Origin: a virus | IMG/VR virus record: IMGVR_UViG_3300016471_001035 | Span: 75,595 to 139,594 of that record | Strand: one strand, 5' to 3' | DNA length: 64,000 bases | In this document: positions 2,093 to 61,461 of the stretch, in pieces | How positions within the stretch are numbered: the stretch's first letter is position 1 | Layout of the letters: each line of letters opens with the position of its first letter | Notes under the pieces: generated by a model | Seen by the model: the letters and a program-made list of their open reading frames with translations, nothing else | What the model was told of the DNA's origin: nothing | Database searches by the model: none | Program-made: the position numbers and the translations under genes

Positions 2093-3211
2093 ATGAGTAA
2101 AGACCTTAATAAAATATTTGCGTCACTAGATAAGCTTAATAGCGAAGCTTCTTTTTTAAACGAAAATGCACTTAGTAAAGTTGATGAGTGGTTTGATACT
2201 GGATGCTATGCTCTTAACGCTATTCTTGGCGGGAGTTGTCGCAACGGTGGCGTACCTAAGGGAAGAATAACAGGATTCTCTGGACCTAGTCAAACTGGTA
2301 AGACTTTTATTGTAAATAAGATTTTAGCTACTGCTCAAAAAAAAGGTATTACTCCCGTTATATTTGATACTGAAATAGCTATTGATGAAAATAGTACAAA
2401 AGGTGTAGGTTTGGATCCCGAAAATGTAAAATATGTGCCTGTTGACACCATTGATCAGTGTCGTAATCAAGTTAGTGCACTACTCGATAGTATTATAGAA
2501 AATGATGCTAGAGGTAAATTTATACTTAGTATTGACAGTTTAGGCAATCTTGCTTCACAGAAAGAGCTCGATGACGTAGCTAAAGATAAATCTGCAGCGG
2601 ATATGGGTCTTCGTGCAAAGTCTTTAAAGAGTATGTTTCGCACTTTAACCTTTAAGGCTGCAAAGGCTGGCGTTACAATTCTTTTTACCAATCATACGTA
2701 TGATGATCCAGCTGCAATGTTCCCAAGTCTTGTGAAGAATCAAGCCGGTGGCTCAGGCCCTGTATATATGGCAAGTATACTTGTACAGCTTGCCAAGCGC
2801 CACGAGAAGGAGGGCGAAGGTGATTCTATGGATGTAGAGGACAAGAAGCTAGCAGAAGCCAATAAATACAGCGGTACAACACTTCGTGCATTGACTGTAA
2901 AGAATCGCTTCTTGCCTCCGTTTTTAGAGACTGAAATGTATCTTTCTTTTAAAACCGGTCTTAACAAGTACAGTGGATTGCTTGGTATGGCTGCAGTGAG
3001 AGGTATCGTTGAACAAAACGGTGCCACATACACAGTGGGGATTACAAGCGGTAAGTACAAGAAGGGTGATAAACTAGGGTATGCAAAGACTTTTGCAAAA
3101 GATCCTGCTTTCTACGAGGAATTTATTATTCCTGAGTTAGATAAGAGATTAATAGAGGAATACAAATATAATGCCAACGAAGAAGGTAAAGAAGAAGAAC
3201 CTATCGAGTAG
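2093..3211 (+). CDS. uvsX: RecA-like recombinase UvsX
   Basis: DTGCYALNAILGG, Walker A GPSQTGKT, FDTE, IDSLGNL, TNHTY, VKNRF. Confidence 0.95.
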   Translation: MSKDLNKIFASLDKLNSEASFLNENALSKVDEWFDTGCYALNAILGGSCRNGGVPKGRITGFSGPSQTGKTFIVNKILATAQKKGITPVIFDTEIAIDENSTKGVGLDPENVKYVPVDTIDQCRNQVSALLDSIIENDARGKFILSIDSLGNLASQKELDDVAKDKSAADMGLRAKSLKSMFRTLTFKAAKAGVTILFTNHTYDDPAAMFPSLVKNQAGGSGPVYMASILVQLAKRHEKEGEGDSMDVEDKKLAEANKYSGTTLRALTVKNRFLPPFLETEMYLSFKTGLNKYSGLLGMAAVRGIVEQNGATYTVGITSGKYKKGDKLGYAKTFAKDPAFYEEFIIPELDKRLIEEYKYNANEEGKEEEPIE

Positions 3212-3941
3212 GGCTGTAGTCCCTGTTAGTGGTGGCATGGACAGCTCAGTACTGCTTCATTTAGCAGCTGAACGGTATGATAAGATAGTTGCTGTAAGCT
3301 TTGCATATGGTCAAAAGCACGGGGTAGAAATAATTTATGCTACACGACAGCTAGGCCAAGTACTTAAAAAAGTGGGCGAAAAAAATATAGTACATAAAAT
3401 TATTAATTTACCGTTTTTTAAGGATGTTTGTCAGGTTTCTTCACTTCTTAACAATAAGATTGCAGTAGCTAAAGCCAAGGACGTAATGGGAGATCCGCAA
3501 ACAGTAAACTATGTACCTTACAGAAATACGATGCTGCTAAGTATTGCATTAGCAATAGCTGAAAACTGCGGTGCTTCTACTGTTTTTCATGGTGCTGCGC
3601 AGGCTGATAGTGTTGCGGGATTTTGGGATGGGAGTGAGGAATTTTTAGAACAAATTAACAAACTTTCATCACTCAATAGACGGAACAAGATAACCGTTCA
3701 AGCTCCTTTAATCAAAAAATCTAAATCAGATATTATTAAATTAGGTATAAAGTTGGGAGTAGATTTTAGTCAAACATGGACTTGTTATGAGGGCGGAGAA
3801 CAGGCCTGCGGTGAATGTACTGCGTGTTCTTTGAGAATAAAAGGCTTTATTGACGCTGGTTATATAGACCCGGTAAATTATAAAACATTAATACCTTGGG
3901 AAAAATATAAGTGTAAGTTAATCTATAACTCTGCAAAATAA
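3171..3941 (+). CDS. queC: 7-cyano-7-deazaguanine synthase QueC family PP-loop ATPase
   Basis: SGGMDS PP-loop, YGQKH, YVPYRN, C-terminal Zn site TWTCY...CGECTACSLR. Confidence 0.92.
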   Translation: MPTKKVKKKNLSSRAVVPVSGGMDSSVLLHLAAERYDKIVAVSFAYGQKHGVEIIYATRQLGQVLKKVGEKNIVHKIINLPFFKDVCQVSSLLNNKIAVAKAKDVMGDPQTVNYVPYRNTMLLSIALAIAENCGASTVFHGAAQADSVAGFWDGSEEFLEQINKLSSLNRRNKITVQAPLIKKSKSDIIKLGIKLGVDFSQTWTCYEGGEQACGECTACSLRIKGFIDAGYIDPVNYKTLIPWEKYKCKLIYNSAK

Positions 3942-5023: not shown

Positions 5024-5245
5024 TTAAGTTACTTGATAGTATATATCTCCGTCGTTGCCAGTAGTATTTAATGGCGGACCGGCTGCAGTAGATACAGTTA
5101 TATTTGGCTTGCCGGTTATACTTGCAAATGAAACAGGTAAGCTTGATATTTCAGCTTTACTAGTAGCAACTCCATTAGAAAAAGGTATTACGCTAGTACT
5201 ATCTGGAATAGCAGGGCTTAATTCTGATATAGTAACATCACCCAT
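5024..5245 (-). CDS. Small fibre-associated protein with shared MxDxTISxL N-terminus
   Basis: N-terminus resembles those of 17466-18197 and 18932-19783; ends in GNDGDIYYQ, a motif typical of phage fibre proteins. Confidence 0.6.
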   Translation of the reverse strand: MGDVTISELSPAIPDSTSVIPFSNGVATSKAEISSLPVSFASITGKPNITVSTAAGPPLNTTGNDGDIYYQVT

Positions 5246-5257
5246 ATAAATCTCTTT

Positions 5258-6160
5258 TTAAGCAGTACTGTACTTGTCAAATTCGTCGAAGCTTCTTCCA
5301 CCTTTATAACCTAGCTCTCTTGCGATTGAAGTAGGCTCGTCTTCTTCAGGATATTCTTCTACCGTTTCCACTTCACCGGTACCTTCGCCTTCTTTTTTCT
5401 CAGATGAAGGTGAAAAACTATTTTTAAATTTTAATGAATCAATAAAGTCCTGTACCATTTCGCTGTCTTTAGCCATCTTTTCATCATAGGCGCGAATAAT
5501 AGCCTCTTCTACTTCTTTTTTAAGCTCAGGTGAATTATAAATATCGCTACCACTAGATACAGTTATTTCATCAGGCAATTCATTAAAGATTGGCATCCAT
5601 TCTTTAATAAATCTAACATCGTTTTTTATAAAGGTATTTGTTGTAGAAGCTGGTGTTGCAGGTGATGTACCAGGTGCACCGGGAGCAACTACTTTCTTAC
5701 CCTCTACCCCAGAGGTAACAGCTTGCTTGACTTGTGCTGGGCTAGCTGCTGCACCACCTTCTACATCTACTCTTAAAACGTTTAACAAATTGTCAACTAT
5801 TCTAGCAGTGTATCTAGCTTCAGTACCGCCGAGTTTAAGTTCGTTTTTAATTAAATTTTCTAAATCTGTTCTAAATTTCATCTTAGATCCCGGATAATAA
5901 AGCTTATATTCTTTACCATCTATAGTATGAATTGCGGGTTTAAAGAGCTTTGTCTGTATTGCTTGAAGTAAACGATTTGCAATTTCTGCTTTTGTTTTAC
6001 CTTCCTTTGCAGCTGTTTTACCAATACCATACCCCTTGCCAGGCGCTTTTTCAATATCACCGGTATATCCTAGCTCGTCAGCATATATAGGTGCTTCTTT
6101 TAAAACCCTAGGTTTTTTAGTTAAATAAGCTTCGAAAATAAGCTTTGTATCTTTGTTCAT
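5258..6160 (-). CDS. Hypothetical late protein, candidate internal head protein
   Basis: 300 aa, TAAATA upstream, N-terminal LIFEA/VLKEA motifs, acidic C-terminus. Confidence 0.7.
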   Translation of the reverse strand: MNKDTKLIFEAYLTKKPRVLKEAPIYADELGYTGDIEKAPGKGYGIGKTAAKEGKTKAEIANRLLQAIQTKLFKPAIHTIDGKEYKLYYPGSKMKFRTDLENLIKNELKLGGTEARYTARIVDNLLNVLRVDVEGGAAASPAQVKQAVTSGVEGKKVVAPGAPGTSPATPASTTNTFIKNDVRFIKEWMPIFNELPDEITVSSGSDIYNSPELKKEVEEAIIRAYDEKMAKDSEMVQDFIDSLKFKNSFSPSSEKKEGEGTGEVETVEEYPEEDEPTSIARELGYKGGRSFDEFDKYSTA

Positions 6161-6161
6161 C

Positions 6162-6200
6162 TTGAATTATTTATTCTTTATATTATAATAAATCAGGAGG
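6162..6200 (+). promoter_or_regulatory. Sigma70-type promoter followed by Shine-Dalgarno AGGAGG
   Basis: TTGAAT(6162)-N16-TATAAT(6184-6189); AGGAGG at 6195-6200, 8 nt before ATT at 6209. Confidence 0.75.
6168..6173 (-). promoter_or_regulatory. T4-type late promoter core
   Basis: TAAATA-N7-ATG(6160), nested in the spacer of the opposite-strand sigma70 promoter. Confidence 0.6.
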
Positions 6201-6208
6201 TTATAGCT

Positions 6209-6892
6209 ATTTGCGGTATATTTGGTTCTAAAGACTTTACAACTTATGTAAAGCTTTATAAGAGCAACAAGAAACGTGGTACGTTTTCTTACGGTGGTCT
6301 ACTGATCGGCTCACATATTCACGCTGTTCTCAAGACACCAGGCACTGCCAACCTATCCAATAAGCTAGTTATAGAGTACGGTAAAAAGAGGAGAAACATT
6401 ACAGATTTTGATGTTTTTTTAGGACACACTCAAGCCCCTACATCTGAAAAAAGAACATTTTCACCAAATACATCTCATCCTTTTCAACATAAAGAATGGT
6501 TAATTGCACATAACGGGGTTTTAACAAACGATAAGGAATTAAAAAAGCTTATTAAAGATAAAAAATCTTATAACGTTGTAGATTCATCTGTTATTGCACC
6601 GCTTATAGCTATGTTTGTTAAAGAGCTAGATGATGAGGTTGCAGGTGTTTGCAAAGCACTATCGCTACTTAAAGGTACGTTTGGCCTTTGGATATATAAT
6701 CAAAAAACTGGTAATATTTTTCTCGCACGATCCGGCAGTACAGTATTCGCAGATTTTCTATCAAACGACTTTTCTTCTTTAAAGGAAAGCGGGTTTGTCC
6801 CTCTTGACGAAGGTACACTATACCTATTAACTAAGGAAGGGTTAACCTCCGTAGGCGTATTTAAGACTAACTCTCCGTTTTTTACACAATGA
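6209..6892 (+). CDS. Class II (Ntn) glutamine amidotransferase, ATT start, 227 aa
   Basis: Read by hand: ATT TGC GGT ATA TTT GGT = (M)CGIFG, then RG, LGHTQAPT, SHPF, AHNGVLTN, VDSSVI, LKGTFGL. No stop before joining ORF 6611-6892; no in-frame ATG/GTG/TTG back to the TAA at 6122. Confidence 0.9.
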   Translation: MCGIFGSKDFTTYVKLYKSNKKRGTFSYGGLLIGSHIHAVLKTPGTANLSNKLVIEYGKKRRNITDFDVFLGHTQAPTSEKRTFSPNTSHPFQHKEWLIAHNGVLTNDKELKKLIKDKKSYNVVDSSVIAPLIAMFVKELDDEVAGVCKALSLLKGTFGLWIYNQKTGNIFLARSGSTVFADFLSNDFSSLKESGFVPLDEGTLYLLTKEGLTSVGVFKTNSPFFTQ

Positions 6893-7581
6893 AAACAGCA
6901 TTTTATTTTTGTACAAGAAATTCTAAAGCGCAAGATACTTTTGCATTTAAATCTCTTCAAAGAATTAAACTAGCTACTCTATGGGAGTTTACTATAATTT
7001 ATAAGGAAAATAATAATGACGGATTAAGCTTAAATTATAATAGTGTTTTAGAAAAGCATGGTAAAGATTATGATAACATAGTTTTTATACACGATGATGT
7101 TTATATTGACGATCTTGGAGTGGTAAATAAGCTAGAAAAAGCTCATAATGATTTTGATATTGTAGGTCTTGCTGGGGGGTTAAATCCTGAAATTAAAGCA
7201 CCCGCCCTTTGGCATTTAATGTGTGGGGGGTTTAACAGCGGTAATTTGAGAGGAGCAGTAGCCCATAAATTTAATAATGATCAAATTTTTATGACCAATT
7301 TTGGCCCCACACCCGCTAGAGTTGCTATTTTAGATGGACTATTCCTAAGCGTTAAAACCGAATGTTTTTTAAAAAAGGAATTTAAATTTAATGAAAATTA
7401 TAACTTCCATCATTATGATATTGCCACCTGTATTGATGCTAATAAAAACAAATTAAAGTTAGGGGTCGTCCCTATATGGGTAGTACATAATTCACCCGGT
7501 CTTCTTAATATCAACGATGCTACATTTAGCGCTAGTCAATCTATATTTTTAAGAGAGTATAGCAGTATTGATTCTGTATAA
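6889..7581 (+). CDS. GT-A fold glycosyltransferase-like protein
   Basis: LSLNYN, VFIHDDV (DxD-like), IVGLAG, LDGLFL, FHHYD; ATGA overlap with the amidotransferase. Confidence 0.75.
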   Translation: MKTAFYFCTRNSKAQDTFAFKSLQRIKLATLWEFTIIYKENNNDGLSLNYNSVLEKHGKDYDNIVFIHDDVYIDDLGVVNKLEKAHNDFDIVGLAGGLNPEIKAPALWHLMCGGFNSGNLRGAVAHKFNNDQIFMTNFGPTPARVAILDGLFLSVKTECFLKKEFKFNENYNFHHYDIATCIDANKNKLKLGVVPIWVVHNSPGLLNINDATFSASQSIFLREYSSIDSV

Positions 7582-8955: not shown

Positions 8956-9252
8956 TTGTTGAATGTGAAAGGTTACGATCCTTCTGAGCAATTAACAGAT
9001 TATGAACAAACTCATTTGTTTTTATCTTTCTGTTCGTTTGTAACACTCACTAATACAAAAAAATTAAATCTTGCTAATGTTTTTATTACCCTTCTTAAGA
9101 ATAAAGAATTTAGAGAGATTTTTAAAATTTATTGTGATTTAAAAAATGATTTTTCAGCTGTAAAATTTTTCTTGCAATTTGATTCAAGCTTGTATAAAAG
9201 TAAATATATAATGAAATTTTTAAACTCAAATAAAAAGGCGCTTTTCCTATGA
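8956..9252 (+). CDS. Hypothetical protein
   Basis: 98-aa ORF, start uncertain (TTG 8956 or GTG 8965); its stop overlaps the bS21 start. Confidence 0.65.
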   Translation: MLNVKGYDPSEQLTDYEQTHLFLSFCSFVTLTNTKKLNLANVFITLLKNKEFREIFKIYCDLKNDFSAVKFFLQFDSSLYKSKYIMKFLNSNKKALFL

Positions 9253-9461
9253 GCAATATTGTTAATGCTTCTGTAACTTTAGATAAGAAGAAATGTACAG
9301 ATAAAGTTTATTTTGATAAAGCCTACAAAAGGTTTGCAAGAGAATTTTTAAGGTCGGGTGTGTTAGAGGATTTAAGATTTAAAAGGTGTTATTATAAACC
9401 AAGCGTGTTGCGTAAGTTAAAAAAGCAAGTTGCAAGACAGAAGTGGAAGTTTTACAATTGA
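9249..9461 (+). CDS. rpsU: Phage-encoded 30S ribosomal protein bS21
   Basis: 70 aa, basic; FDKAYKRFAREFLRSGVLEDLRFKRCYYKPSVLRKLKK matches the bS21 pattern ALRRFKR..G...E.R.R.FYEKPS..RK. Confidence 0.85.
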   Translation: MSNIVNASVTLDKKKCTDKVYFDKAYKRFAREFLRSGVLEDLRFKRCYYKPSVLRKLKKQVARQKWKFYN

Positions 9462-17465: not shown

Positions 17466-18197
17466 TTACCATTCTAAAATAACACACCCACCTACACCGC
17501 TACCGCTGTTTGCAGATCCGCCAAAACCAAAATTAGAAAATATTTTTCCAGGTAAATTATTTGTACCGTTTAAGATTATTATTCCACCTGATCCGCTACC
17601 ACCACCACCCTGTCCCCCACTGCCTCCAGCAGAATTGTTACCACAATTTTTAAATGCTCCTCCACCGCCATTTCCGCCTGTAGCTACTATGCTGCCTACT
17701 GATGTAGATCCTCCTACTTGACCAGCACCTGCAGTAACGCCACAACCCGTGCTTCCACCACCGCCACCGCCATTTCCAATAGAAATTGATAGCTGTTGCC
17801 CAGGTGTTACATCTAAAATACCTAAACAGCATCCACCCCCACCACCAGCTCCGCCTCCATATGCTCCATAGCTAGAGGATGCACCTCCCCCTGCACCGCC
17901 CCCACCACCTATACATGTAACTTTTAATTTTGTTATATTAGAAGGTACAGTAAATGTACTGGATGAGGTAAATAGCTGTAAGCCGCTAAACGTAGAAAAA
18001 GATGGTTTATTTAACAAATCGGTGTAACTACCAGTTGTCGCAACAGTAGCTAATGTAGGCTTGTTGGCTATATTAGTATAATCTACTTGTAAAGCTGATA
18101 ATTGTGCTTTACCGGTTGTACTTCCATTTGATATAGGGACAACCAGAGAGCCTTGAGGAGTTATATCATTTAATTGAGATATAGTTATATCAGCCAT
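17466..18197 (-). CDS. Glycine-rich fibre-like virion protein
   Basis: MADITISQL N-terminus, LATVATTGSYTDLLNKP fibre motif, FTSSSTFTVP...IGGGGG Gly-rich domain ending GCVILEW. Confidence 0.75.
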   Translation of the reverse strand: MADITISQLNDITPQGSLVVPISNGSTTGKAQLSALQVDYTNIANKPTLATVATTGSYTDLLNKPSFSTFSGLQLFTSSSTFTVPSNITKLKVTCIGGGGGAGGGASSSYGAYGGGAGGGGGCCLGILDVTPGQQLSISIGNGGGGGGSTGCGVTAGAGQVGGSTSVGSIVATGGNGGGGAFKNCGNNSAGGSGGQGGGGSGSGGIIILNGTNNLPGKIFSNFGFGGSANSGSGVGGCVILEW

Positions 18198-18925
18198 TAT
18201 TGATAACCTCCATATACATCTGAATAATCTGTTTTGCTATAGTCAAAAACATTTTTTGATGCTACATTGACATCGTAGCTATAAGGCTTTTGTGCTCCTG
18301 AAGCTGTAGGCGACGTGGTGTCATCAAATACTTGATCATTTTGCGCTTCTGGCGTTACTCCAGGTTCAAACGAGTATTCGAATCTCTTAGCTTTTATCAA
18401 CCAAACATAATGACCTGCAAGAGGATTAATTTGTGCTATATCTTGATCTAATCTTTGGGTAATTTCATATATATTACCGTTTCTACCCCCCGGCCTATCA
18501 TTACCATATTCGGTTAATTGAAAAAGATCGCCAGCTTTAGGTTCTGCACCCTGCCCAAAAGTAGCATAAAACGCGCTTATATGAACAAATGCAGTGACTT
18601 CGTCATCTGATACTAAGCCAAACTTACTTAAAAGCAATGCATTTTCATTTAAATTAATAGCTATAATTAAATCTTGAGGAGGAGAGTATTGTTGTGTTGG
18701 CTGCTCTCCGTAAAGCATGTCTGCACTTAATGTACTAGTATTATTAACTATATAACCAACTTTCTGTCCATAAAGATTAATTTGTTCTCTCCAGTAATTA
18801 GATATAATGTTTCTTTCGTCTGTATTTTTACTTTTATCTGTAAATCTAAAACAAGTATTATCTACAAAAAAGAAAGGGTATGTCTTAGACTGTTCTAGAT
18901 TACCTGTATAATATTCTGTAGACAT
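18197..18925 (-). CDS. gp14: Neck / head completion protein (T4 gp14-like)
   Basis: EQINLYGQKVGY, LYGE, LSKFGLVSDDE, PKAGDL, YEIT, KRFEYS. Confidence 0.85.
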   Translation of the reverse strand: MSTEYYTGNLEQSKTYPFFFVDNTCFRFTDKSKNTDERNIISNYWREQINLYGQKVGYIVNNTSTLSADMLYGEQPTQQYSPPQDLIIAINLNENALLLSKFGLVSDDEVTAFVHISAFYATFGQGAEPKAGDLFQLTEYGNDRPGGRNGNIYEITQRLDQDIAQINPLAGHYVWLIKAKRFEYSFEPGVTPEAQNDQVFDDTTSPTASGAQKPYSYDVNVASKNVFDYSKTDYSDVYGGYQ

Positions 18926-18931
18926 ATTAAG

Positions 18932-19783
18932 TTAAGAGATTTTGCTTACCCCTAATCCAGTTAGCTTTATCCAATAGTAGCCTTGGCCATTATAAGACCC
19001 TGCAGATTTGCTTATAACTAAATCTGTATTATCCCAGGTAACCGACCAATTGCCTGCTGTACCATTATTAGAATTGTAATATGTAGTAATATCTTTTATA
19101 GACCATGGAGCTCCCCCTAGGGCAAAAGCCGCAAAATAAGTACAACCATAAGTATTAACATAACCATAGTGCGAGAATGTTGCTTCAATTTTAAAAGGCC
19201 CTCCTATTTCAGGTCTTGCTTTATGGGTAATTACTGAATTTCCTGCAGAATACCCTGCCCATGCGAGATCAGAAACACCATCTAGAGAAAAAGATTTTTG
19301 TGCAGATACAGTACCATAAACTGATAATTGCCCATCCTGTTGTAACGTCATTCTCCTGTAAACTACCGGTGTTTGAAAATTGCTACCTCCACTAGGCCCT
19401 TGAATAAATTGTAAATTACCTGTCAATCCGGTATTATCAGTTAAATTGTCCGGGCTTACAAATATATGCCAACTTCTATAGTTGTTACTATTACTATTTT
19501 CAGGAAATGTTAACCCTTCATAAGGCCCGGTTTCATTCCAATATAAATTGTTTAAACCTCTTATATCACCGTTATTGAGTTGTAAACAAATAATACCAGG
19601 ACTACCAGCGGGAACAGTATCCCAAGTTAACGTAGAACTTAAAAGACTTATTCTAGAAGAATCGCTATAGAGAATAGAAGATACGGGAATGGATTTAGTT
19701 GTACCACCGTTAGCTACAGGTAATAAAGCATTACCTCTTGTAACCGTTGCTATTGGTAATCCAGATATTGTAACATCTGCCAT
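18932..19783 (-). CDS. Fibre-like virion protein with shared MxDxTISxL N-terminus
   Basis: MADVTISGL start, RMTLQQDGQL fibre-type segment, beta-rich C-terminus. Confidence 0.65.
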   Translation of the reverse strand: MADVTISGLPIATVTRGNALLPVANGGTTKSIPVSSILYSDSSRISLLSSTLTWDTVPAGSPGIICLQLNNGDIRGLNNLYWNETGPYEGLTFPENSNSNNYRSWHIFVSPDNLTDNTGLTGNLQFIQGPSGGSNFQTPVVYRRMTLQQDGQLSVYGTVSAQKSFSLDGVSDLAWAGYSAGNSVITHKARPEIGGPFKIEATFSHYGYVNTYGCTYFAAFALGGAPWSIKDITTYYNSNNGTAGNWSVTWDNTDLVISKSAGSYNGQGYYWIKLTGLGVSKIS

Positions 19784-54669: not shown

Positions 54670-56971
54670 TATACAAAAAATTTTAAATTTTAATAACAAA
54701 AAGTTTGATCCTTCTATTGTTAATTCAGATCAAATTAAATATATTGTAACTTATCTTGCAGAAGCTATAGAAAGCCTGGAAGGCGATGTTGTTGAATTGG
54801 GATGTTACGTAGGAGAGACCAGTAAGTACATTTCAAAAACATTAGAAGTTGCTAATTCTAATAAAAGCTTTTTTGTATTTGATTCGTTCGAAGGGCTTCC
54901 TGATTTGTCTAAATTTGAAGAAGGCACAGGGTGGAAGCCGAGGACTTTAAACACTACAGAAGAAGTATTGACAGAAAATTTTACTATTAATAACGTAAAA
55001 TTGCCAATTATAACTAAGTCTTGGTTTAAAGATATTAGGGACGATCAGCTTCCCGAAAAAATATGCTTTGCATTTTTAGATGGTGATTTTTATACCTCTA
55101 TTTTTGATAGTTTAGAAAAAATTTATAACCGAGTAGTTGATGGCGGGTATATTTTAGTTCATGATTATAAGCGTAATGATTTACCCGGGGTAGAAGCTGC
55201 AATATTAGAATACTTTAGATTGAATAATATAGAACTTAATATTATAGAAATATGCGAACAGCTAGCTGTTATTTGCAAAAACAAAGAAATCAAAAAGATT
55301 GAACCCTCAAAGTCAAAATTCACTATTGTCACAGGCCTTTGGGATATTGGCAGAGATAAGCTCAAGGAAGGATGGTCTAGAGGCTATTCTCACTACTTAA
55401 ATAAATTAGAGGAGCTTTTGAAAGCTGATTTTAATTTAATTATTTTCGGTGATGAAGAATTAGAAAAGTTTGTTTTTGAGAGAAGAGAACACTATAATAC
55501 TCAATTTGTTAGACGAGATTTAAATTGGATTAAAAACATGCCATTTTTTAATAAAATTCAAGAAATTAGAACGGACCCTAATTGGTATAATCAAGCCGGT
55601 TGGTTATCTGAATCTACACAAGCAAAGCTCGAGCTCTATAATCCATTAGTAATGAGTAAAGTATTTTTGCTCAACGACGCTAAAATTTTAGATAAATTTG
55701 ATTCTGAGTTTCTCTTTTGGCTAGATGCTGGTATAACAAACACAGTACATTATGGGTATTTTACACATGATAAAGTACTAGAAAAGCTACCTAAATTTTT
55801 AGAGAAGTTTTTATTTATAAGCTTTCCTTATCCCGATGGTGGAGAAATACATGGGTTTTCTAGAGAAAAAATGAATGAATTAGCGGGCGTTGAAAATGTT
55901 GAATATGTCTGTAGAGCCGGTTTTTTTGGCGGCCCTAAAGCATCAATCTCCGAAATTAACAGTATATATTATACTTTGTTAAACAACACACTTAATGATG
56001 GGTATATGGGAACAGAAGAAAGCATCTTTACATTAATGACATATCTCCACCCCCATCTTTTTACAAGAGTTTCAATAGACGGCAACGGACTTTTAAGTAA
56101 GTTTTTTGAGGACCTTAAAAACCTAGATATTTCAGAAAAAAATATTGATTTGGATAGTAGAGTACTCTCCGGTGTAAGCATATATGTCATAACATTTAAT
56201 TCGCCAAAGCAATTTGAAATTCTATGTGAATCGTATTTAAAGCATCCAGGGTTTTTAAAAGAAACTAAAAATTATCTATTAGATAATAGCACGGATGAAT
56301 CTACATTTGAAAAATATAAATTGTTGTGTGAAAAATATAATTTTGAGCACATTAAAAAAGACAACTTAGGTATATGTGGCGGTAGACAATTTATTGCAGA
56401 TCATTTTAATGAAAGTGATTCTAAGTATTGTATCTTTTTGGAGGATGATATGGGGCTTTGTGAGCAAACTACAGATCTTTGTAGAAATGGTTTCCCAAGA
56501 TATACAGATAATTTATTTTACAAATTAGTAAAAATAATGGATATAGAAAAGTTTGATTTTCTTAAATTGTCGTTTAGTGAATTTTTTGGAGATAACTCAA
56601 TACAATGGGCTTGGTATAATGTACCCCAGGTAGTTCGCGAAAGATTCTGGCCTCATAACAAAAAGCTACCAAAAATGGGTCTAGACCCTAATGCACCTAG
56701 AACAGAATTTAAAAATATAGATTTTATTGATGGGCTTGGTTATATTACAGGAGATATATATTACTGCAATTGGCCTCAAATAGTATCTAAGGAAGGCAAT
56801 AAAAAAATGTTTATTGAAACTAAATGGGCATCGCCATTTGAACAAACATGGATGTCTTATATGTATCAGCTTACTAAGGAAAATAAATTAAAAGGCGCGT
56901 TGTTATTACTGTCTCCTATTGAACACAATAGATTTGATCATTACTCTAGAGAATTACGTAGAGAAAACTAA
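54662..56971 (+). CDS. Fusion: TylF/MycF-like sugar O-methyltransferase, HtrL/YibB-like domain, GT-A-like domain
   Basis: GDVVELGCYVG, FDSFEGLP, FLDGDFY, HDY; TIVTGLWDIGR, FWLDAG, GFFGG, GTEE; IFLEDDM. Confidence 0.8.
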   Translation: MINIQKILNFNNKKFDPSIVNSDQIKYIVTYLAEAIESLEGDVVELGCYVGETSKYISKTLEVANSNKSFFVFDSFEGLPDLSKFEEGTGWKPRTLNTTEEVLTENFTINNVKLPIITKSWFKDIRDDQLPEKICFAFLDGDFYTSIFDSLEKIYNRVVDGGYILVHDYKRNDLPGVEAAILEYFRLNNIELNIIEICEQLAVICKNKEIKKIEPSKSKFTIVTGLWDIGRDKLKEGWSRGYSHYLNKLEELLKADFNLIIFGDEELEKFVFERREHYNTQFVRRDLNWIKNMPFFNKIQEIRTDPNWYNQAGWLSESTQAKLELYNPLVMSKVFLLNDAKILDKFDSEFLFWLDAGITNTVHYGYFTHDKVLEKLPKFLEKFLFISFPYPDGGEIHGFSREKMNELAGVENVEYVCRAGFFGGPKASISEINSIYYTLLNNTLNDGYMGTEESIFTLMTYLHPHLFTRVSIDGNGLLSKFFEDLKNLDISEKNIDLDSRVLSGVSIYVITFNSPKQFEILCESYLKHPGFLKETKNYLLDNSTDESTFEKYKLLCEKYNFEHIKKDNLGICGGRQFIADHFNESDSKYCIFLEDDMGLCEQTTDLCRNGFPRYTDNLFYKLVKIMDIEKFDFLKLSFSEFFGDNSIQWAWYNVPQVVRERFWPHNKKLPKMGLDPNAPRTEFKNIDFIDGLGYITGDIYYCNWPQIVSKEGNKKMFIETKWASPFEQTWMSYMYQLTKENKLKGALLLLSPIEHNRFDHYSRELRREN

Positions 56972-57001
56972 TTTAGTACGTTTAAATACGTGTATTTTAA
57001 G

Positions 57002-57007
57002 TAAATA
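57002..57007 (+). promoter_or_regulatory. T4-type late promoter core
   Basis: TAAATA-N5-GTG(57013). Confidence 0.65.
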
Positions 57008-57012
57008 ATAAT

Positions 57013-57864
57013 GTGAATTATGTAAATTACGTTTTGTCGAGCGTACAAATTCCCGGATATCCTTCTGTATTAAATCATTATATTTTTATTGACCCTGTAC
57101 TAGGAACTTCTATTAATTGGCCTGCCTGTGCAAACGGAAGCTTTTTTTCTGAAACAACCGGCACGTTTGTATACCCCGCAACTGCTAAAGGCGGTTTATT
57201 TTTCCCTTGGGGTTATTCAGTTGAAAACACCACACTTACAGCAGATTTAGGCATATTTAAAGGGCAGGTAACTCTTTTAATTAGCCCCTCAGCTATAGAT
57301 AATACGTATTTTACAACATTAAAAATAATTTACGATTTTAATGATAATGAGATTATTAACATTGAAAAGGGTATTGTAGAAAATATTTTACCAGGCAATG
57401 TTGCTTTTCTTGATGCTGGCAACCCAAACGATAAAAATATATCACACGTATATACATCAAAATCATTAAGCGGGACAACTTATTATCCAACTATTACTGT
57501 TTTAAACGGTAATATGGCATTAAGTGTTTTTAATTTAAAGCTTTCACTTCTACCTGGCACAGTATTCGATTTTGAAGATTTTCATCTAATAAATACCTCA
57601 CAGCTTTCTAGGTTTGACGCACCGCAATTTAAATCATTAGAAGTGTTTGAATTAGATGAAGAAAACAATAATTTTGTATCAAATTTTCTTTTAATAAGCT
57701 CTTATCCCACCCCTACGCCTTCCTACACGCCAGTGCCCACCCCTACACCATCAATTACCCCTACTATAACACCTACTATTACTCCTACTAAAACTGTTAC
57801 GCCTACGATAACACCCTCACCATCTATTACACCTACTATAACTCCATCGAGGTCGAGTTTATAA
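57013..57864 (+). CDS. Putative virion protein with C-terminal Thr/Pro tract
   Basis: PKD-like YDFND...ISHVY...YYPTITV segment; about 48-aa (TPTI)n tail. Confidence 0.7.
   Translation: MNYVNYVLSSVQIPGYPSVLNHYIFIDPVLGTSINWPACANGSFFSETTGTFVYPATAKGGLFFPWGYSVENTTLTADLGIFKGQVTLLISPSAIDNTYFTTLKIIYDFNDNEIINIEKGIVENILPGNVAFLDAGNPNDKNISHVYTSKSLSGTTYYPTITVLNGNMALSVFNLKLSLLPGTVFDFEDFHLINTSQLSRFDAPQFKSLEVFELDEENNNFVSNFLLISSYPTPTPSYTPVPTPTPSITPTITPTITPTKTVTPTITPSPSITPTITPSRSSL
57706..57849 (+). repeat. Thr/Pro coding repeat
   Basis: PTPTPSYTPVPTPTPSITPTITPTITPT... Confidence 0.85.
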
Positions 57865-57867
57865 ATA
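57860..57867 (+). promoter_or_regulatory. T4-type late promoter, full consensus
   Basis: TATAAATA-N6-ATG(57874). Confidence 0.75.
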
Positions 57868-57873
57868 TTTACT

Positions 57874-60800
57874 ATGGATGTAATTAATTTAGATAGTACT
57901 AATTTTGTTGGTTTGTCAGCAAAATATAGCAATGATGAAACTTTAAAGTTTAATCAATCTATTATATTTTCTGAACAAAGCATCTATCTATCGCTTAACG
58001 AAATATTGAAAGAAATTTACGATAATAAAATAAACAACTATTCTAATTTGTTTTTAACAAATAAAAACGTTCTATCAACCGGTATATATATTGATAAACT
58101 AGAGCCATTAGAAGATGAAGGGTTCTCTACATATTTTGCTGCTAATGCTGCGGGTACTATAACACCATCTACTAAATTTTGGGTAGTAGATGAACCCGCA
58201 ATTAGCGTAAATGTAGCGCAAGTTAAAGTAGATGGCGAGTTTAGTACTATAAACAACAAGTATTTTTTTGATGTAGAGCTATTAACTGAAAAACTTTGTA
58301 AAATTTCCCACGAAAACAGCAACGTTACTAGATATTTAACTGTCGATTATACCGGTAATCTGTCTTTTGCAAAAGATGCAGGATTAGATTTAATTGGCCC
58401 TCTTAGCCCCCAGATATTTTATTACATTTATGATAGAGCTTATAATTATATGGTTTTAATAAAAAACATAAACGATATACCTAAATTTGTTACTTTTAGC
58501 GCTAATAATGAAGATCTTGCATTAACCGATCCCATTACAGGTACGAGTATACCGTATTCAATAACTTCTGTTTTTAGAGTAAGAGAAAGAAACCCTCTTC
58601 CCAATAAAACAGAATTATTAGATCCTTGGGTTAGCTATACAAAAGATTTTAAAACAAATTCACAAGATATTAATGCTGATAGAAGTTTTGATAACACTAA
58701 TACAAACTTTTTAATTAATAACCAGTATTATACAATTTCTGGTAACGAAATTAACTTTAATTTATTATCACTTAAAAATACCTCTACCCCGGAATACAAC
58801 ATTTCTAGAGCTAATCCTTTTTTTGATGAAATAAATGTTGAGTTTAGAGACTATAAAAAGCTTCATACAGGTACATATCAAAATTTAGGAAATGATAATA
58901 TTACTGCTGGGTTTGAAAGTTATACTAATGCTATAACTCTTAAGAAAGATAAAGTAACATATTTTCATATTCCTCAAGTATTTTATCCTTTTTTAAGACT
59001 TAATATAAATGATTCTGGATTGACAGAAGCAGGAGCTATAGCTGGTGATCATCCTTTAAAATCAGATAAAATATTTAAGAAAAAAGCTGATTATAAATAT
59101 ACTTCTAATTTTGGCGATACTGCGGAAGAAAATTCAGGCGAATTTTTATGCGCATGGCTTTCCGGAAATACAAGCCCAGACGTTAGACCTGTGTGGGTAG
59201 ATAGATATTATAATCCAAAGAAAATTTCTGGTTATCAAGCTCTAACTGCATCAGACTTTAAAGCAATTAAATATATTTCTAATTTTGACTGCTTGGTAGA
59301 GAAAGCTTTTGAAACGTTTGCGAGGGATGTGGATGTTTTTGATAAACCATCTGACTTAATTTTTGAAAAAGGAACTTATTATGCGTATCATCATTACGGG
59401 CCAAAAGACGTAGATAAATTTATTGAAACCCTATCTCTCGATCTGGTAGAAAAAGGTATAAAGACTTATCTTTTCAATAATGGTGCTGACGCTACATATA
59501 CTGCGGTAATAAATGAAAGTGATGAGGTATCAGAATATTTATTTGACGGTAAGAAATACGGTACTACCTCACAGTTATCCGCTATTCAGGCGTCTAACCA
59601 ATTTACTTTAGTTTTTGATGGCTACAGTTCAGATTGGAATAAACCCATAGGAAATCAATTAGTTGGTAATTATGATAGAGACGGTTTTGGTATTTTTAAT
59701 GAAAATTTAGTTACACCCACTTTATTTGTACCTATTTTAAGTGGTCTGTATGTTACAAACTTAGATTATAGAATTCTCAATACATTAAAGTTCGATAGTA
59801 ATATTACAGGTATTATAAGACTTCAGGGTATGAACGATTTTTATGGCATATTTGAAGACAATAGCTTTAGAAGATTTAATTTAAATTACTCTGAAACAAG
59901 ACGTGGTTATCCTGCTGATATAACAGATGAATTAGGTAAAGTTAGAGGTGTTGATTATAATGAAACAGATGCAAGAGTTCTTATTGGCGATAACCCCGGG
60001 GTTAAAAAACTAATGAGGCTAGATTTAAACTCTCATGAAATTACAGATATTACTTCTGGTACTTTTAATTTAACAAAATACCCTAGAAGAATATCAAAAG
60101 GGCTTAATATAAACACAGCAAATTCAATAGTATTTTATAATGACGTAATGTATTTAACGCAAGGTTCAAAAGCAATAAGAGCCAAAGATACAATTTTTTA
60201 TAATTTTGAAAATTCTCAAATACTACAATGGAAGGATATTACTAATTTAACAAGTATTAATCCAATAACAGCATTTGTATCAAGCACTACTATAAATGAC
60301 TTTTCTGTAGACTTTGATAGCAATTTATGGATAGTATTTGATAATAATAAATTTGCAAAATATAGTTATGACCGCGTTTTTATACTTTCTGGTGAATTTA
60401 TAGATACCGAAGACAAAAACTATACTAATTACAAAATAGATTTTACTGCAGATTTTAATTTAGGAAGTTATTCTCAACATGCGATAGTTACTCGTCAATC
60501 ATATACAGGAGAAAAAAATAATTTACAATTCGTAAAGCTTTCATTAAGCGGTGTTACTGTAGATAGAAAATATTTTTCAGAATATACGCCTTTAGGTAAT
60601 AATTATATTTGTAAAAACGTTCTAGTAAAGGACGTATTTACAACTTCACCTACATTATCTGTACAGTACCCCAACGGTATTGTTTTAAATCAAATTATTC
60701 CCAGTGAAAATTACACCAACCTTATTTCTTTTAGTGCTAATATTGCAAATTACTTTTATAATAGAAACTTACAAACGTATAATTTTGCAAATTCTAAATT

Positions 60801-61461
60801 CTTAACAACTTATGTTAAGGATAAATATCCTTCAAATAGTATAAATGTAAAAGCGCAACTAACCAATATTTTTAACACTAATGATACAGTATTAACAGAA
60901 ATTATTTTTAATTTATCTGCATTAGATGTAGGGTATCATAATTTTGCAGTCAGATTTGATGCTGACGGCGGATATATGCATTTGTTTATAGATGGCCAGC
61001 AAAAAGGAGTAACTGAATTTTCACCTAGAAAATATAAATTTAGTAATTTAATATACCGTCCATTTTTAATTGGTAGTTCGAGTTACGCATATTCATTACC
61101 TTTATTTTCGTATTTAAAAAACACATCATTTCTTGCATATGATTTCAGAGTAAAGAATTTCTATATATATGATACACCTCTTTTTGATTTTGATATTATG
61201 TTTCATGCAAGAAAAGGTATGAGCATACAAGATATAGTATTTGATGTTGCATGTGGTAGAAGAAATTATTTTGAAGAAATTGAGAGGTACTTTAAATTTA
61301 CACCTCCCGGCTCTAAATCTACACAATATAATTTAATTATTAAAAATTCTGGTATTCAAGACGAAGAATTGCAGTATGCTTTGGAGCAGCGTATTTATGA
61401 AATAATAAACAGTACTGCTCCAGTTTATTCAAGGCTAAATAATATTAAATGGGTAAATTAA
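57874..61461 (+). CDS. Large putative virion protein with C-terminal LamG/ConA-like segment
   Basis: YHNFAVRFD...MHLFIDG...FLIG...KNFYIYDTPL; late promoter. Confidence 0.65.
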   Translation: MDVINLDSTNFVGLSAKYSNDETLKFNQSIIFSEQSIYLSLNEILKEIYDNKINNYSNLFLTNKNVLSTGIYIDKLEPLEDEGFSTYFAANAAGTITPSTKFWVVDEPAISVNVAQVKVDGEFSTINNKYFFDVELLTEKLCKISHENSNVTRYLTVDYTGNLSFAKDAGLDLIGPLSPQIFYYIYDRAYNYMVLIKNINDIPKFVTFSANNEDLALTDPITGTSIPYSITSVFRVRERNPLPNKTELLDPWVSYTKDFKTNSQDINADRSFDNTNTNFLINNQYYTISGNEINFNLLSLKNTSTPEYNISRANPFFDEINVEFRDYKKLHTGTYQNLGNDNITAGFESYTNAITLKKDKVTYFHIPQVFYPFLRLNINDSGLTEAGAIAGDHPLKSDKIFKKKADYKYTSNFGDTAEENSGEFLCAWLSGNTSPDVRPVWVDRYYNPKKISGYQALTASDFKAIKYISNFDCLVEKAFETFARDVDVFDKPSDLIFEKGTYYAYHHYGPKDVDKFIETLSLDLVEKGIKTYLFNNGADATYTAVINESDEVSEYLFDGKKYGTTSQLSAIQASNQFTLVFDGYSSDWNKPIGNQLVGNYDRDGFGIFNENLVTPTLFVPILSGLYVTNLDYRILNTLKFDSNITGIIRLQGMNDFYGIFEDNSFRRFNLNYSETRRGYPADITDELGKVRGVDYNETDARVLIGDNPGVKKLMRLDLNSHEITDITSGTFNLTKYPRRISKGLNINTANSIVFYNDVMYLTQGSKAIRAKDTIFYNFENSQILQWKDITNLTSINPITAFVSSTTINDFSVDFDSNLWIVFDNNKFAKYSYDRVFILSGEFIDTEDKNYTNYKIDFTADFNLGSYSQHAIVTRQSYTGEKNNLQFVKLSLSGVTVDRKYFSEYTPLGNNYICKNVLVKDVFTTSPTLSVQYPNGIVLNQIIPSENYTNLISFSANIANYFYNRNLQTYNFANSKFLTTYVKDKYPSNSINVKAQLTNIFNTNDTVLTEIIFNLSALDVGYHNFAVRFDADGGYMHLFIDGQQKGVTEFSPRKYKFSNLIYRPFLIGSSSYAYSLPLFSYLKNTSFLAYDFRVKNFYIYDTPLFDFDIMFHARKGMSIQDIVFDVACGRRNYFEEIERYFKFTPPGSKSTQYNLIIKNSGIQDEELQYALEQRIYEIINSTAPVYSRLNNIKWVN

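Follow-up and report, generated by a model that had tools for sequence, protein, structure and literature searches.

Why a phage gene whose product should begin with Met-Cys is opened by ATT, behind a perfect Shine-Dalgarno (SD) sequence and in a genome of leaderless type, is the question raised by positions 6162-6892 of the window (the whole 64,000-nt stretch of DNA analysed here, part of a 139.6-kb contig of a T4-like phage, about 66% complete). An earlier note on this DNA had read the arrangement as a reporter of ribosome state. The orthologous alleles compared below make it probable that the ATT and its SD are instead the retained footprint of a homing endonuclease acting at the start codon, and not a purpose-built ribosome-state sensor. 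Such an origin would be a concrete evolutionary source of non-AUG starts, through conflict with a selfish nuclease rather than through regulation.

The gene and its start codon

The gene (6209-6892, plus strand) encodes a stand-alone class II (Ntn) glutamine amidotransferase-like protein of 227 amino acids (Pfam GATase_6/7; GlmS/PurF glutaminase fold). The ORF track calls only 6611-6892 and misses 134 codons; the frame is open from the stop codon at 6122-6124 to 6892 and holds no ATG, GTG or TTG before 6611. That it extends back to ATT at 6209, as the earlier note proposed, is borne out by the match of the 227-residue translation to GATase_6 (E 3.5e-10) and by the substitutions in the missed part: against four close relatives the 134 codons carry 45-50 synonymous and 15-26 amino-acid changes, against a fifth, more distant relative 39 and 42, and by these counts the N-terminal part is under purifying selection.

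The predicted structure (pLDDT 93.9) has the GlmS-glutaminase fold (Foldseek E 3e-12; best matches GlmS, GFAT and PurF). Like the glutaminase domain of GlmS and PurF, the Ntn fold combines an N-terminal Cys with HNG and Asp motifs: the Cys after the start codon (predicted catalytic residue, 6212-6214) is at least 90% conserved in 92 sequences, and the HNG motif of the oxyanion hole is invariant in the family. In GlmS numbering the glutamine-binding residues are Arg73 and Asp123; aligned by motif rather than by structural superposition, the Asp is invariant and, unlike in GlmS, the Arg73 position is Gln, within GHxQAPT. Sequence and model support a class II (Ntn) amidotransferase with predicted glutaminase activity; removal of Met from the AUU-initiated product would expose the catalytic Cys.

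The start is fixed at ATT (6209-6211) because the N-terminal Cys (TGC, 6212-6214) follows directly; this argument of the earlier note holds, the Cys standing after the start codon in ATG and ATT alleles alike. No canonical start is possible for the full-length protein, AUU and SD are conserved at the orthologous Met position and, from this conservation, ATT at 6209 is judged to be the true start. Database relatives above about 63% identity are annotated with truncated N termini, more distant ones mostly starting Met-Cys; the ATT start explains truncated gene calls that lose the catalytic Cys in dozens of entries.

Upstream lie, on the plus strand, a sigma70-type promoter (6162-6189: TTGAAT 6162-6167, 16 nt, TATAAT 6184-6189), the SD AGGAGGT (6195-6201; a possible remnant of the right end of the nuclease cassette described below) and a T at -1, conserved with the ATT in the clade (6208-6211). 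By inspection, AGGAGG (6195-6200) is separated from ATT by 8 nt. The hexamer as such is not enriched in the window (16 copies, 14.6 by chance); the remaining 15 copies all lie within ORFs, and the description of this one as the sole perfect copy in a non-coding gap stands. The leader is unstructured, and a hairpin or riboswitch was rejected, as the predicted 5' end is less folded than all 200 shuffles.

Initiation signals in the rest of the genome

The genome is of leaderless type: the arrangement TTG-N16-TAnnnT-N6-start occurs at 19 starts, TAAATA is located 5-6 nt before 41 starts, and GGAGG stands at SD distance in only two of the 183 called starts. The N16 geometry of the amidotransferase promoter had been said to be shared with other genes, and the 19 starts agree with this. 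From that geometry, +1 is predicted at about 6196, inside the AGGAGG that lies 8 nt before ATT; the coordinates given earlier are correct, the start site being a sequence prediction, and with this +1 the mRNA should begin with its own SD.

Initiation on leaderless mRNAs requires AUG, and IF3 opposes it as it does initiation at AUU (PMC4611024). Because leaderless initiation needs AUG, an ATT allele would work only with an SD. Translation of the gene must depend on SD pairing, as already proposed, and the joint conservation of ATT and SD supports this; the proposed IF3 sensitivity of the start is likewise supported, since any AUU start is under IF3 discrimination (PMC4611024). It is implied that the hosts of these phages can read SD sequences, of which the phages themselves make little use.

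Just one other start in the window is SD-like, that of a gene with a MADITISQ-type N terminus (17466-18197, minus strand), with GGAGG 9 nt before ATG; this GGAGG, within the end of the upstream ORF, may be a chance match. A search of the genome for other SD sequences with near-cognate starts gave none that was convincing. Many genes share a MADVTI-type N terminus (genome G000:110-20688; window 5024-5245 and 17466-19783), which suggests a modular family of virion tips.

ATG and ATT alleles

Among 201 orthologous alleles, 139 start at ATG, almost all without SD, and 62 at ATT with an SD-like motif; ATC, ATA, GTG and TTG are absent from all 201. Counted as 193 distinct starts, these comprise 137 ATG without SD, two ATG with a displaced weak SD, 53 ATT with SD and one ATT with an unusual leader; the number of SDs varies with the rule applied, 53 of 54 ATT starts having one by the strict rule and 62 of 62 by a rule widened afterwards. 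On a FastTree tree of the 201 alleles, drawn with no outgroup so that counts of change carry no direction, the ATT/ATG state, and with it the mode of initiation (SD-led or leaderless), changes about 19 times within this one gene family, and the presence of the nuclease 11 times; independent contrasts pair ATT with SD at 12-13:0 (p 0.0005). A search of GTDB for bacterial homologues and a clue to the host yielded no more than one 26% partial match, and GenBank phages gave only 31% partial matches. Two pattern matches (L137, L199) were set aside, as they look like RNA-phage replicase; a third (L221) is unrelated.

The window allele falls in a supported clade of 33 ATT alleles (59-100% identity). 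ATT and GGAGG are kept in 33 of 33, GGAGG lying 5-7 nt downstream of the -10 box and 8-10 nt upstream of ATT, which answers in the affirmative whether relatives keep a non-ATG start with its SD. The third base of ATT shows 0 changes in these alleles, against 4-16 (median 12) at 33 fourfold sites. Four of these 33 neutral columns also lack G; taken alone, the absence of ATG revertants is only weakly significant, and the data thus call for neither continued nuclease pressure nor regulation, though either may act.

T stands at -1 in 45 of 46 nuclease-free ATT alleles vs 86 of 139 ATG alleles, U at -1 favours initiation (PMC10018350), and codons 4, 5 and 8 are nearly fixed as A/U-rich in the clade. 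The start context (SD, -1 U, open leader, A/U-rich codons) looks adapted to strengthening initiation from a weak codon, and the clade, on the evidence of its alleles, keeps ATT, SD and -1 U under selection. At 6218-6232 of the window, codon 4 is ATA, as in 33 of 33 clade alleles; in ATG alleles the residues of codons 4, 5 and 8 are encoded by varied codons.

Some ATG alleles beside ATT lineages retain a displaced SD. In L352, L354 and L355 (upstream of 3001), ATT and ATG alleles of 88% identity have in common a leader of GAAGGTAGG type that lacks a standard SD; this may be a reversion in progress.

A homing endonuclease at the start codon in relatives

Across the alleles compared, the trait predicting ATT is a putative homing endonuclease inserted at the start codon. 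The divergent gene upstream of distant ATT alleles is GIY-YIG/SegE-like with NUMOD motifs (Pfam: one above cut-off, the rest weak); its GIY-YIG domain is N-terminal and its DNA-binding motifs C-terminal, and PF01541/PF19835 are precomputed on many members of the family. A first survey placed it upstream of eight ATT alleles, with an internally deleted remnant at a ninth. In a blind test, eight further members of the 45-protein family were all found divergent at an amidotransferase start, which was ATT in all seven with DNA; two of these alleles have ATG twins, at 96% and 100% identity. A truncated member from the viral scan (L415) is likewise beside ATT. The family is thus upstream of 16 ATT alleles (one truncated), plus the internally deleted remnant, and of 0 of 139 ATG alleles; independent contrasts on the tree give nuclease with ATT at 7-8:0 (p 0.008).

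The insertion site is fixed, between the amidotransferase and a 300-aa divergent gene, and the nuclease is present or absent between near-identical alleles: bearers with ATT and nuclease-free twins with ATG share 99% (L171/L251), 100% (L208/L256), 100% (L479/L345-346) and 96% (L476/L121-127) amino-acid identity. In L171/L251 and L208/L256 the cassette begins at the A of the former ATG and ends with a new SD and ATT before the Cys codon; the right junction falls exactly at ATT in all pairs, and the left junctions vary, with 0-33 nt of promoter lost. From these alignments, the nuclease cassette is shown to replace ATG by SD and ATT in relatives. Such pairs of natural alleles, with the cassette as the only difference, make tests of cleavage and of translation simple.

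Within ATG clades, ATT tips that lack the nuclease have inserts of about 90, 28 and 14 nt, and cassette-like SD motifs occur in some of these; the graded inserts, with the displaced SDs, read as a probable series of decay and reversion. The same nuclease family was met beside a much more distant amidotransferase (L477 and L415, about 30-38% identity), again with SD and ATT. L407 and L408, considered as cases of nuclease beside ATG, were rejected as unrelated proteins, and more distant GIY-YIG matches (L416-L420) are not at the amidotransferase locus. In L094 (upstream of 4119), a nuclease-free ATT allele, an out-of-frame ATG at -16, the leaderless position, overlaps the SD and would open a short competing ORF.

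Origin of the ATT leader

Free-standing homing endonucleases target critical codons and replace the expression signals that they displace (PMC2988022), and cleavage by the GIY-YIG enzymes I-BmoI and I-TevI needs one critical G-C pair (PMC3664794). In the account that we consider probable, the ancestral and commonest state would be a leaderless-type ATG, to whose conserved start region a free-standing, Seg-like GIY-YIG endonuclease homes. In relatives its cassette lands on the start codon or a few bases ahead of it, removes the leaderless context and brings its own SD, spacer and ATT directly before the Cys codon. The change of ATG to ATT most likely destroys the cut site, which would contain the G of ATG: GIY-YIG enzymes depend on a critical G-C pair, and the third-position G is common to ATG, GTG and TTG, so that ATT would be the workable immune start. 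ATT itself may not be the source of immunity, because the cassette changes the bases ahead of the codon as well.

In the ancestor of the window clade, the nuclease gene would have been lost, or the leader acquired by recombination, and the native promoter rejoined to a 14-nt SD leader. The amidotransferase would now be translated from AUU through a strong SD with which a short-leader mRNA begins, with selection keeping the perfect SD, -1 U, open structure and A/U-rich early codons and so maximising initiation at a weak codon. Searches of the window's contig (a 66% complete genome) and of 15 partial genomes of its clade found no nuclease, and the closest nuclease-bearing alleles are only about 53% identical to it; for this reason we infer the descent of the window leader from a cassette, the 14-nt leader being too short and AT-rich to prove homology. 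Against the footprint reading stand also the Pfam GIY-YIG scores, most of them below the curated cut-off, L094, which lies beside nuclease-bearing alleles and has a different leader, and the keeping of ATT without reversion through deep divergence with the nuclease absent. A small ORF elsewhere in the genome (G000:67241-67660, minus strand) has weak GIY-YIG profile similarity (E 0.003) and is not the start-codon nuclease.

The locus in relatives is like T4 SegA-SegG (PMC2988022) in having an intergenic GIY-YIG/SegE-like gene with NUMOD motifs, patchy among near-identical phages, and in the replacement of the neighbour's signals. Unlike Seg enzymes, which cut hundreds to thousands of bases from their own gene, the cassette ends at the neighbour's start codon; ATG is rewritten to ATT, a leaderless gene is made SD-led, and the window holds the leader without the nuclease. 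I-BmoI and I-TevI (PMC3664794) are likewise GIY-YIG enzymes that recognise a G-C pair in a conserved codon, with the occupied allele immune by nearby base changes; they are intron-encoded and act at thymidylate synthase codons, whereas here there is no intron and the G of a start codon is the candidate critical base. Neither AUU starts nor free-standing nucleases are new; the literature yielded no paper on a homing endonuclease inserted at a phage amidotransferase site, on non-AUG starts arising from homing endonucleases, or on a nuclease that rewrites its neighbour's start codon and mode of initiation.

Alternative explanations

The leader might have arisen with no nuclease, SD and AUU being selected to lower the dosage of an enzyme that consumes glutamine and of the glycosyltransferase coupled to it, as in E. 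coli pcnB. The empty record for a nuclease in the clade, the lack of an ATG revertant in 33 alleles and the existence of several other nuclease-free ATT clades agree with such damping, but the missing G is weakly significant when four of 33 neutral columns also lack it. Two coordinated changes would be required, about nine times over, where a weaker promoter or GTG/TTG would be simpler, and GTG and TTG never occur; moreover 139 alleles do well with ATG, and the leader looks adapted to more initiation, not less. We regard dosage damping as unlikely.

The reading of the earlier note, in which SD and AUU sense the state of the ribosome (IF3, host versus phage bS21) and gate the operon, is in our view rather doubtful, whether as origin or as later exaptation. 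E. coli infC and pcnB start at AUU, and in infC the product feeds back on its own gene; the architecture here resembles that of infC. As in infC and pcnB, AUU stands behind an SD and is expected to be IF3-sensitive and weak (IF3 discrimination: PMC4611024); unlike infC, no feedback loop is evident, and most amidotransferase orthologues use ATG. Apart from that of the amidotransferase there is essentially no SD-led start in the genome, every allele of the window clade has ATT, and bS21 is carried by all of its genomes checked, so that within this clade ATT and bS21 are confounded.

Across lineages the association is lost. Syntenic bS21 is present at 23 and absent at 9 loci with nuclease-free ATT, 0 and 5 with nuclease-bearing ATT, and 10 and 22 with ATG, syntenic absence not being absence from the genome (that of L091 has bS21 elsewhere). 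ATT therefore occurs without syntenic bS21 at 14 loci and ATG with the same bS21 at 10, one complete ATT genome has no bS21 match at all, and the bS21 of ATT phages and of ATG phages look alike; on these counts a bS21-ATT link was rejected. As leaderless ATG is itself antagonised by IF3 (PMC4611024), ATT gives no IF3 read-out of its own; the 66% complete genome yielded no IF3 homologue, and the amidotransferase has no known link to translation. ATT segregates instead with the nuclease between genes of 99-100% identity. The claim that the gene reports ribosome state is accordingly not supported, nor is that of gating: the glycosyltransferase adjoins the amidotransferase in 143 of 196 loci, and in the other 53, nine of them with ATT, other genes intervene.

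The sensor model fails as a family-wide explanation; a later exaptation as sensor is possible in the window clade, where ATT and bS21 coincide. A compound scenario, in which the G of the start codon is the nuclease's critical base so that only non-canonical starts are immune, the gene is rewired many times to SD-led AUU, and the scar is domesticated in the bS21-carrying clade to read host IF3/bS21 state, strikes us as similarly doubtful. The neighbouring phage bS21 of the window (9249-9461, plus strand), not tied to the ATT state, has an aromatic C terminus, and one phage subgroup has either gained or lost it at this site; that of L091 differs.

Initiation at another codon, with later processing to expose the Cys, has little probability. 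ATA at 6203 and ATT at 6173 and 6182 are in frame, and some Ntn enzymes have propeptides; these candidates, however, precede the predicted +1 or stand 2 nt from the SD, clade spacers of 8, 9 and 10 nt break any upstream frame, and ATG orthologues have Met directly before Cys. An assembly error, recent lesion or inactivated gene is very unlikely, indeed barely credible, because all 33 clade alleles (59-100% identity) have ATT with GGAGG, and 62 ATT alleles from independent samples have intact frames, purifying selection and a conserved SD.

Neighbouring genes and possible role

Upstream of the amidotransferase is a divergent 300-aa gene of unknown family (5258-6173, minus strand; TAAATA late-promoter motif 6168-6173), the same gene beside which the nuclease inserts in relatives; 48 nt separate the two start codons and hold no nuclease remnant beyond the leader. 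Downstream, a glycosyltransferase (Glyco_tranf_2_5; 6889-7581, plus strand) overlaps the amidotransferase by ATGA. A QueC homologue (3171-3941, plus strand; Pfam QueC E 7e-56, TIGR00364 above cut-off) occurs upstream in 125 of the 128 loci whose flank is long enough.

The genome further encodes FolE, QueD, a QueE-like protein, QueF and a formyltransferase; upstream of the window, G000:33928-38306 and 55779-60863 hold genes for QueF, formyltransferase, a GuaC-like protein, QueD, a QueE-like protein and FolE, which by annotation is a full 7-deazaguanine precursor pathway. The 291-aa ORF at G000:33928 had no Pfam or NCBIfam match, and no DpdA/TGT was confirmed. With QueC nearby and FolE, QueD, QueE-like protein and QueF in the genome, the locus is like Gat-QueC of phage 9g and archaea (PMC6884629); unlike it, the amidotransferase is a stand-alone domain, with QueC a separate gene 2.3 kb away and no fusion. 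The likeliest role of the amidotransferase would be that of ammonia donor for QueC in the 7-deazaguanine pathway, in the manner of a split Gat-QueC. The QueC of the window has AGFWDGSEEF in place of the canonical SGYPDC-type motif; with this motif, and with Gln at the Arg73 position of the amidotransferase, the two enzymes may act on an unusual substrate.
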